64,000 bases of DNA from Harriotta raleighana (lineage: Eukaryota). Made by a program: the position numbers and the translations under genes. Below the pieces are notes generated by a model. It made no database searches, had not been told where the DNA came from, and worked only from the letters and a program-made list of their open reading frames with translations. The stretch is taken from positions 4,317,963 through 4,381,962 of the forward strand of contig JBNZDD010013709.1 in NCBI GenBank assembly GCA_050575255.1. The letters are read 5' to 3'. This document shows, piece after piece, positions 39,641 through 40,591 of this stretch (position 1 is its first letter; every line of letters starts with the position of its first letter).

Positions 39641-40591
39641 TGAGTGAATCAGTAATAATAGATGGTTTTTACCTATCAAAGGCTCCTTGCAGTATTTTAA
39701 ATTTAAATCTCACACCTCTCACCCTTTCTCAACGCTTCCCCCCAGCCTTAAATTATTGCCATTGAAAGCACCGGTCTGTCATTTTCTTCAGATTCCCAGG
39801 GAGAGAGATGGGGGTCACCTTGTGTTGTAGAGCTGGACAACAGTAATTGTGTTAATGAGGTGCCAGTTTTCCTCAAACATCCAGTCTTTCCACACAGTCA
39901 AGTCAGTCAGTGGCTGGTNGGGGGTGGGGGTCACCTTGTGTTGTAGAGCTGGACAACAGTAATTGTGTTAATGAGGTGCCAGTTTTCCTCAAACATCCAG
40001 TCTTTCCACACAGTCAAGTCAGTCAGTGGCTGGTGGAAGCTGCTGGAGTTTCCTGACTCTACTCTTCCCCCAAGTGGTGATGGACTTTTTACACTGGTTT
40101 TATTCTTCGCCACCAGGTAAAGAAACGCTCTTTGTGTATGTCCACAGTACACACAGTACACAGTGCTGTACATAAGGACGTTTGAAAGGTGATCTGAAAG
40201 CTCAGGCTGCAAAAGCCAAACAACGCACCTCAGAATGAGAGAAAGCTCACTTTCACCCCTGACTTGCTTTGCCCTCACCCCCCCACACCCCACATTTGTC
40301 TCTATCCCCTCTCCCACACCCCCCCTCCCACACCATCCCACCCCCCCCATCCCAAATGGCCCGCTAAGCAACAACAGGACACGAGCATAGCTTGAAACCC
40401 CTTCCAGATTGTGTGTGGTGTCCGATCTTCAGCCCAACAGCAACATTATTTAACGAGCAAACACTAAACGATTAGATAAGATAGCAAAGCTCATGCACTT
40501 AGCTAGTAACTGTACCCCCCTCCCCCCCGAGAGTAACCTGCTTTCCTGTCTCTTTTGGTGATCTCTTCACCCCCATCCCCCCTCCCCACAG
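39641..40591 (+). pseudogene. Degenerate (frameshifted) long SS5 exon extension homologous to the proline-rich inserts of NRXN2/NRXN3
   Basis: Colinear peptide blocks in shifting frames: VSESVI (39641), TSHPFSTLPPSLKLL (39714), IAIEST (39755), GSPCVVELDNSNC (39812), DSTLPPSGD+DF+YTGF (40055-40101), FE-GDLKAQAAK (40181), PKWPAK (40351), LKPLPDCVWCP (40392), [16 protein letters not shown] (40555). These match the recalled NRXN3/NRXN2 insert in order. An in-frame TAA at 40534-36 blocks read-through into the last exon. Confidence 0.7.
39809..40034 (+). repeat. 110-bp exact tandem duplication around a single N (probable contig-overlap artefact)
   Basis: 39809-39918 is repeated at 39925-40034, with N at 39919. 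Confidence 0.85.

Follow-up and report, generated by a model that had tools for sequence, protein, structure and literature searches.

Neurexins NRXN2 and NRXN3 carry a long alternative extension at SS5, directly upstream of the part of the last exon shared by all forms, and the question raised by the present locus is whether NRXN1 once had this segment too and what has become of it. The locus lies in the window, by which we mean the whole 64,000-nt stretch of Harriotta raleighana DNA that was analyzed (GenBank assembly GCA_050575255.1, contig JBNZDD010013709.1, positions 4,317,963 to 4,381,962 of the forward strand). The original prediction, made from the letters alone, had read the ~950 nt before the last exon of an NRXN1-type gene as the fossil of such an extension. 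Coordinates of the features discussed below are collected in Table 1.

Table 1. Features of the locus in window coordinates, and GPI exon 24 of NRXN3 in the same genome
Feature	Position	Strand	Remarks
Penultimate NRXN1 coding exon	26470..26557	+	heparan-sulfate serine and Cys-loop; two phase-1 donors; read from the sequence
Acceptor-like site a (putative)	39616..39640	+	88% pyrimidine, CAG, AG 39639-39640; place homologous to the 25a acceptor of NRXN3/NRXN2
Decayed homologue of Nrxn3 exon 25a	39641..40116	+	second Cys pair and acidic LPP-DDED-FY block
Direct duplication	39809..40034	+	110 nt, split by a single N (39919)
Acceptor-like site b (putative)	40092..40116	+	AG 40115-40116; homologous to the NRXN3 25b acceptor by DNA alignment
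Decayed homologue of Nrxn3 exon 25b	40117..40591	+	ends in the last-exon acceptor, AG 40590-40591
NRXN1 last exon, coding part	40592..40896	+	stalk end, transmembrane helix, cytoplasmic tail ending EYYV, stop
GPI exon 24 of NRXN3	L017, G000:C13719, about 1470620-1470730	minus	~2.2 kb upstream of its 25a acceptor

The gene and its paralogs in the H. raleighana genome

The gene in the window is NRXN1, as originally predicted. The open frame 40591-40896 is a neurexin last exon which, among the best 120 of 8000 scored proteins, reaches 98-99% identity with NRXN1 of sharks and rays and 88-92% with bony-fish proteins, nearly all of them named neurexin-1; these values mark the source as a cartilaginous fish. 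Its identity to NRXN3 of the same genome is 73%, and it falls outside the NRXN3 clade (100/99) in a 17-row tree that held no NRXN2 row. A search of the genome with PF12369 for synteny with FSHR/LHCGR, which we take to be the NRXN1 neighborhood, gave no match, and the search controls were equally silent. The penultimate exon matches residues 307-338 of shark NRXN1-beta and ends at either 26548 or 26557, the 9-nt difference encoding the GGL insert of SS5; shark RefSeq models show both forms (EPSS-ANPT and EPSSGGL-ANPT). The three residues GGL are also what mouse Nrxn1 inserts at SS5 according to the available part of PMC8024894, in agreement with the mammalian NRXN1 SS5 given in the original prediction.

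Three last-exon matches were found in the 1.1 Gb genome. L002/L007 group with NRXN3 in the tree, and L003 is NRXN2-like by its VDQSR motif, which is of NRXN2 type. The last exons of the genome's own NRXN3 and NRXN2 lie in open frames of 348 and 456 codons, extension included. Measured from the upstream CAG acceptor to the ANPT-like start, the extension comprises 207 amino acids in frame in the NRXN3-like L002, and 236 amino acids, intact and in frame, in the NRXN2-like L003. The NRXN3 extension is 68-72% identical to long NRXN3 isoforms of sharks, ray-finned fishes, turtles, crocodilians and birds (best 120 of 1085), with 72% for sharks and 71% for tarpon or gar; that sharks come no nearer than these bony fishes would point to a chimaera. 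The NRXN2-like last exon (L003:553-1920) has poly-Gly and poly-Gln expansions in the cytoplasmic tail and Gly/Glu-rich expansions in the extension, and L003 sits on a long tree branch.

The GPI exon 24, which contains a stop, has a clear homologue in NRXN3 of this genome as well (36 residues, hydrophobic at the end), so that exon 24 is older than the split of cartilaginous and bony fishes. No exon-24 remnant was found in the NRXN1 intron, where plus-strand scores were no higher than minus-strand scores, and an apparent match in the NRXN2 intron was rejected as a CA-repeat artifact. Among the matches listed by intron-to-intron blastn, only interspersed repeats and known exons were in common.

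Anatomy of the broken extension

The stretch 39641-40591 is a frame-broken homologue of the long SS5 extension, directly 5' of the NRXN1 last exon. In the primer and peptide lists of Hauser et al. (2022, PMC9275415), mouse exon 25a holds the TTKDS and DDGLVISG blocks and exon 25b holds SLSTSIFEGGYK; this placement equates the extension with 25a plus 25b. The same lists, together with the shark model P0274, were used to fix the boundaries of 25a and 25b in NRXN3.

The three AG dinucleotides at 39639-39640, 40115-40116 and 40590-40591 occupy the homologous places of the NRXN3 acceptors a, b and c. The original prediction had the fossil start right at an AG acceptor, and the AG in question indeed belongs to an acceptor-like site, putatively homologous to the 25a acceptor by its spacing to the next homologous block. 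The counterpart of site b is used in the shark NRXN3 RefSeq model P0274. Pyrimidine-preceded AGs number 10 in the surrounding 1.2 kb. The tract before acceptor c is 94% pyrimidine in NRXN1 here. The corresponding values are 56% (NRXN3) and 69% (NRXN2), two genes in which this tract also codes for protein. The DNA alignment suggests that ~30 nt of pyrimidines were inserted at acceptor c, 3' of the VT codons at 40533-40538. With one duplicate copy removed, the 25a-like segment measures 360 nt versus 303 nt in the genome's own NRXN3; the 25b-like segment measures 475 nt versus 318 nt, having grown by C-rich and pyrimidine insertions.

All the predicted peptide blocks were located at the expected place and in the expected order, and the NRXN3 and NRXN2 motifs with which the original prediction compared them match database proteins. 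The blocks are VSESVI (39640-39657), TSHPFSTLPPSLKLL (39714-39758), IIAIEST (39752-39772), GSPCVVELDNSNC (39812-39850, repeated at 39928-39966), DSTLPPSGD (40055-40081), FYTGF (40087-40101), GDLKAQAAK (40188-40214), PKWPAK (40351-40368), LKPLPDCVWCP (40392-40424) and a block of 12 residues (40555-40590). VSESVI and the 12-residue block fall outside the best local alignment at two stricter settings and rest on their position. Counted from the block coordinates, the frame changes ~10 times. The three frames contain 7, 11 and 17 stops, the longest open stretch is 66 codons, and no frame stays open through to the last exon. Use of a or b as acceptor is predicted to yield a stop after 41 or 19 residues, before the transmembrane helix. 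At 40113-40122 the old 25b acceptor AG is followed by the donor-like GTAAAG, and 39641-40116 would in principle be readable as a cassette exon.

Similarity to NRXN3 and NRXN2 compared with controls

Similarity was scored by frameshift-aware local alignment with a profile of 11 NRXN3 sequences, the alignment covering profile positions 21-185 of 208. The score was 121.0 with one duplicate copy removed, and 113.5 for the sequence as assembled. None of 200 dinucleotide shuffles (50.1+-8.5, maximum 78) reached 121.0, nor did any of 100 shuffles of 60-nt blocks (maximum 86.3) or any of 170 other 991-nt windows from both strands (maximum 59.1). The reversed NRXN3 profile scored 45.2 on the stretch, and stretches upstream of other neurexin exons all stayed below the score (10 of 10, 28.7-58.0). 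With strict gap costs the margin was thin, 51.7 versus maxima of 47.1 for shuffles, 50.9 for block shuffles and 39.8. With the duplication collapsed, as had been proposed with the original prediction, the frameshift-aware alignment is colinear and above all shuffled controls, and homology to the long extension of NRXN2 and NRXN3 is upheld.

Tests at the DNA level gave a local score of 147 with the genome's own NRXN3 extension, versus maxima of 114 among shuffles (0 of 200 reaching it) and 108 among other windows (0 of 198). With the NRXN2 extension the score was 88, reached by none of 200 shuffles and by 1 of 198 windows. An NRXN2-only profile beat 60 of 60 shuffles on the stretch, at a z of 4.3 versus 12.9 for the NRXN3 profile. 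The lamprey protein and three of five single NRXN2 proteins did not rise above shuffles (scores reached by 3, 11, 47 and 36 of 60).

The two halves, split at the 25b acceptor, fared differently, and the predicted block match stands firmly for one of them. The 5' (25a-like) half scored 86.6 at the protein level, with 0 of 300 shuffles reaching this value, and 0 of 500 shuffles reached the DNA score in each of eight tests. The 3' (25b-like) half alone is marginal: its protein-level score of 54.8 was reached by 16 of 300 shuffles, and its DNA scores by 4-62 of 500 shuffles in global and 33-274 of 500 in local tests. Neither half-profile cross-matches the other half. The 3' half is accepted mainly because it sits between a proven homologue and the last exon, and also because FE-GDLKAQA and LKPLPD occur in the expected order.

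Within the window, tblastn alone gave E-values of 0.01-0.02. A protein search with the longest remnant block (39755-39916), a weak test, gave five candidates, none with E<=10. The best ESM Atlas score was 0.89, to endonuclease clusters, and was disregarded, and the PDB held no match to the NRXN3 extension. The repeat-free state of the stretch, once offered as evidence, loses its force, as 18% of upstream 950-nt windows are also repeat-free by a small repeat library.

Sequencing error, duplication and segregating alleles

The frame breaks are not sequencing error in the contig-covered parts, 39641-39902 and 40015-40339, in agreement with the original prediction. The Logan contigs of runs X1, X2 and X3 span 39400-39902 and 40015-40339, where they repeat the broken sequence; they differ from the window only by G>A at 39801, C>G at 40105 and two indels. 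One indel is an 11-nt G-run insertion after 39808 in run X3. In runs X1 and X2, the other indel deletes 12 nt at 40190; this deletion removes part of the GDLK block and looks derived, since at 40190 it is the reference allele that aligns with NRXN3. The C>G change falls in the pyrimidine tract of acceptor b. The NRXN1 remnant thus appears to be still eroding. Run X4 gave no contig of the locus. In one further sample, 38 raw reads (depth 0-6) showed no listed difference from the window. For 40340-40590, coverage consists of raw reads at 0-2x, with no contig of the locus.

The 110-nt duplication probably arose in assembly, two alleles of one locus having been placed in tandem. The G run that follows the N equals the 11-nt insertion allele of run X3, and no read or contig bridges the duplication junction. 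Zero depth across the N was not taken as proof of an artifact, because depth is 0-6 throughout and zero elsewhere too. Duplicates are also present on both sides of an N in L003 and of the 908-N gap in the window, and not at two other window gaps. The duplicate at the 908-N gap, downstream of the NRXN1 stop, is 1.4 kb long, looks exact (42078-43506 and 44415-45843) and is probably an assembly artifact as well.

Decay, constraint and age

Identity of the remnant to NRXN3 of the same genome is 0.63, 0.61 and 0.50 at the three codon positions, compared with 0.46-0.59 in three shuffles and with 0.68, 0.65 and 0.46 between the NRXN2 and NRXN3 extensions. Gap lengths that are not multiples of three make up 19 of 27 gaps between the remnant and NRXN3, versus 7 of 20 for NRXN2. 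The net insertion in the remnant is ~210 nt. A rough simulation, for which rates of indels and replacements were assumed, matches the observed values at ~0.4-0.5 neutral substitutions per site, or half to all of the time since the paralog split. Recent loss was rejected, as it does not fit the simulated decay. The better state of the 25a half lies within about 1.3 SD of uniform decay in the simulation; between NRXN2 and NRXN3, too, 25b is the faster-diverging part.

In this rough simulation, neutral decay reproduces the observed similarity, and indels segregate within the blocks, so that no constraint is needed. The original prediction had left room for constraint on splicing or truncated isoforms, and this part of it is not required by the data.

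Four-fold sites of five NRXN1/NRXN3 exon pairs (47 of 127 identical) give 1.37 substitutions per site, and with so loose a neutral yardstick (0.97-2.2) the loss cannot be dated. At the central value of the yardstick, a single loss that preceded the split of sharks and bony fishes fits only at 1-2 SD; in this model the data do not tell a single early loss from later lineage-specific losses.

The extension in other species

Among 120 proteins from the last-exon search, the Cys-loop and the TTG motif are 27-31 residues apart in 118, and the other two have no loop. The extension motif was found in none of 162 proteins with an NRXN1-type tail motif, a set mostly gathered by last-exon similarity with a ranking that favors short forms, and it is present in shark NRXN3 models. 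A search directed at the extension had no NRXN1 among the best 120 of 1085 matches. When 1.84 billion representatives were searched by phmmer for the NRXN3 extension, 26 matches came up, namely NRXN3-type and NRXN2-type proteins and the sea lamprey protein S4R589; 13 of the 26 reach the tail, and none of these is NRXN1-type. The NRXN2 extension is open in primate, treeshrew, cyprinid and skate proteins.

The extension is older than the split of NRXN1, NRXN2 and NRXN3. For the NRXN1/2/3 ancestor this agrees with the long ancestral extension originally proposed; the second Cys pair that was part of that proposal belongs to 25a, a part supported for this ancestor only, as the one lamprey protein found matches 25b and not 25a. 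In S4R589, the last exon is preceded in frame by the 25b-like part (44 identities, query of 106 aa), and the 25a part is not recognizable (5 identities over 101).

One extension-bearing protein named neurexin-1-beta-like (P0327, Amblyraja radiata XP_032871115.1) was considered as an intact NRXN1 and rejected. It groups with NRXN2 (80/91) and is probably misnamed.

Two further observations concern other fishes. In the NRXN1 models P0246, P0258, P0259, P0260 and P0269 (skates and one stingray), six residues of the last-exon start are missing and GGL runs directly into GGRG, a sign that the acceptor of the last exon may have shifted in some batoids. In P0306, P0309 (a cluster of 9), P0316, P0319 (Menidia), P0321 (a cluster of 6) and P0312 (Oryzias javanicus), an NRXN3-type extension matches over 60-100 residues before the frame is lost or the sequence ends, with all six members of the P0321 cluster breaking at the identical place. 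These broken frames resemble the teleost nrxn3 duplicate of P0304 and P0320, and as protein ORFs they suggest that the extension decayed a second time, more recently, following the teleost genome duplication.

Interpretation and alternative explanations

The stretch is a frame-broken homologue of the long SS5 extension, and it likely persists as a dead pseudo-exon in the last intron of NRXN1 that decays neutrally and is predicted to make no protein. NRXN1 is likely to have once had a synapse-ligand-binding segment, lost long ago. The last exon in the NRXN1/2/3 ancestor would have had nested 3' splice sites a, b and c, and the O-glycosylated stalk would have been long, medium or short according to the site used. 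Following the vertebrate genome duplications, NRXN1 may have come to use the distal acceptor c only, which would have freed the a and b segments from coding constraint; these would then have decayed by the substitutions and net insertion estimated above. The remnant would still be recognizable because of the slow evolution of the lineage, cartilaginous fishes having a slow molecular clock. The isoform function (in the mouse, binding of C1ql2/3 by the 25b form) would have stayed with NRXN3. Two observations weigh against this reading: both old acceptor AGs survive with their pyrimidine tracts, as a functional reading also predicts, and the 25b-like half is not significant in several tests.

The old acceptors might still be in use, producing a secreted NRXN1 without transmembrane helix or a silenced mRNA, like mouse Nrxn3 exon 25a; from the sequence we regard this as unlikely. 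It would account for an AG with pyrimidine tract at both homologous positions and for the better preservation of the 25a-like half, and the stop after the predicted 41- or 19-residue tail would fall in the last exon and so escape junction-dependent decay. There is also a precedent: according to the available text of PMC9275415, translation is repressed by exon 25a in reporter assays, and the reasons for the conservation of this exon are unclear. However, the asymmetry of the halves is no larger than uniform decay allows and recurs between NRXN2 and NRXN3, frame-changing and block-deleting indels as well as the C>G in the second tract are all segregating, and no such tail occurs among the NRXN1 models examined, a set not assembled for that purpose. 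A wider version, in which a gnathostome-wide NRXN1 remnant more than 400 million years old has its acceptors used at low level for a secreted or translationally silenced NRXN1, as with Nrxn3 exon 25a, is more doubtful still. If true, it would mean an unrecognized dose control on a major autism and schizophrenia gene.

That an NRXN3 extension was copied before the NRXN1 last exon later, by gene conversion or ectopically, and then decayed would fit the stronger match to the NRXN3 than to the NRXN2 profile (z 12.9 and 4.3). Yet the stretch is in exact register with the downstream acceptor, its Cys block resembles mammalian NRXN2 (P0313) in spacing and residues, no trace of NRXN3 exon 24 accompanies it in the intron, and NRXN3 is probably nearest the ancestral state anyway, as NRXN2 extensions diverge fast and the lamprey 25b part is NRXN3-like; we consider such a copy very improbable. 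An intact extension broken by assembly errors is hardly credible: the region does hold an N and a probable false duplication, but some 10 frame changes would be required, and the contigs of three runs and the 38 raw reads agree with the broken sequence where they cover it. Equally hard to believe is a chance likeness of C-rich, proline-coding DNA. The near-null 3' half and the modest tblastn E-values could be taken that way, but none of the controls for the whole stretch (0/200, 0/100, 0/170) supports it, and for the 5' half it is refuted by 0/300 and 0/500 shuffles and by half-profiles that do not cross-match.

The remnant sets the direction of SS5 evolution in neurexins, from a long stalk segment in the ancestor of all three genes to its loss in NRXN1. 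The segment had been viewed as a property of NRXN2 and of NRXN3, with C1ql2/3 binding by 25b and translational silencing by 25a. An ancestral extension lost by NRXN1 would imply that part of the functional difference between neurexins arose by loss. In the slowly evolving genome of a cartilaginous fish, pieces of exons lost since the vertebrate genome duplications can still be read, so that scanning a whole genome for losses of this kind is feasible. By itself, the NRXN1 remnant reveals no new working mechanism.

Comparison with known systems

Among the papers listed by full-text literature searches, judged by title and abstract start, none described an NRXN1 remnant of the extension, and its novelty is provisional. 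The SS5 alternative exon termed Nrxn3-specific in the available part of PMC9812575 is exon 24.

The closest parallel is NRXN3 with its AS5 (SS5) acceptors 25a, 25b and 25c. In the parts of PMC9275415 available, mouse Nrxn3 25b forms bind C1ql2/3 and 25a silences translation, and the C1ql2-Nrxn3(25b+) interaction is supported by the accessible text of PMC10942602. Position, block order and the three AG positions are alike in NRXN1 and NRXN3. The NRXN3 extension is open and ~70% conserved from sharks to birds (best 120 of 1085), whereas the NRXN1 copy is broken in every frame and ~210 nt longer, and the GPI exon 24 upstream in the genome's own NRXN3 has no detectable counterpart in the NRXN1 intron. 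The long SS5 insert of NRXN2 is homologous too, with the Cys pair and the acidic block in common; it keeps an open frame with low-complexity expansions, in contrast to the broken NRXN1 copy. Both donors of the canonical NRXN1 SS5, where GGL is added by a 9-nt alternative donor, are present here at 26548 and 26557; canonical descriptions, in the portions available, give the 3-residue insert only and do not mention an upstream remnant.

More generally, the locus belongs with pseudo-exons and isoform losses after genome duplication, in which one paralog keeps an alternative segment and another keeps a frame-broken remnant. Compared with this class, the NRXN1 remnant appears unusually old (~0.4-0.5 substitutions per site), and it is an alternative 3' extension of a terminal exon rather than a cassette exon.
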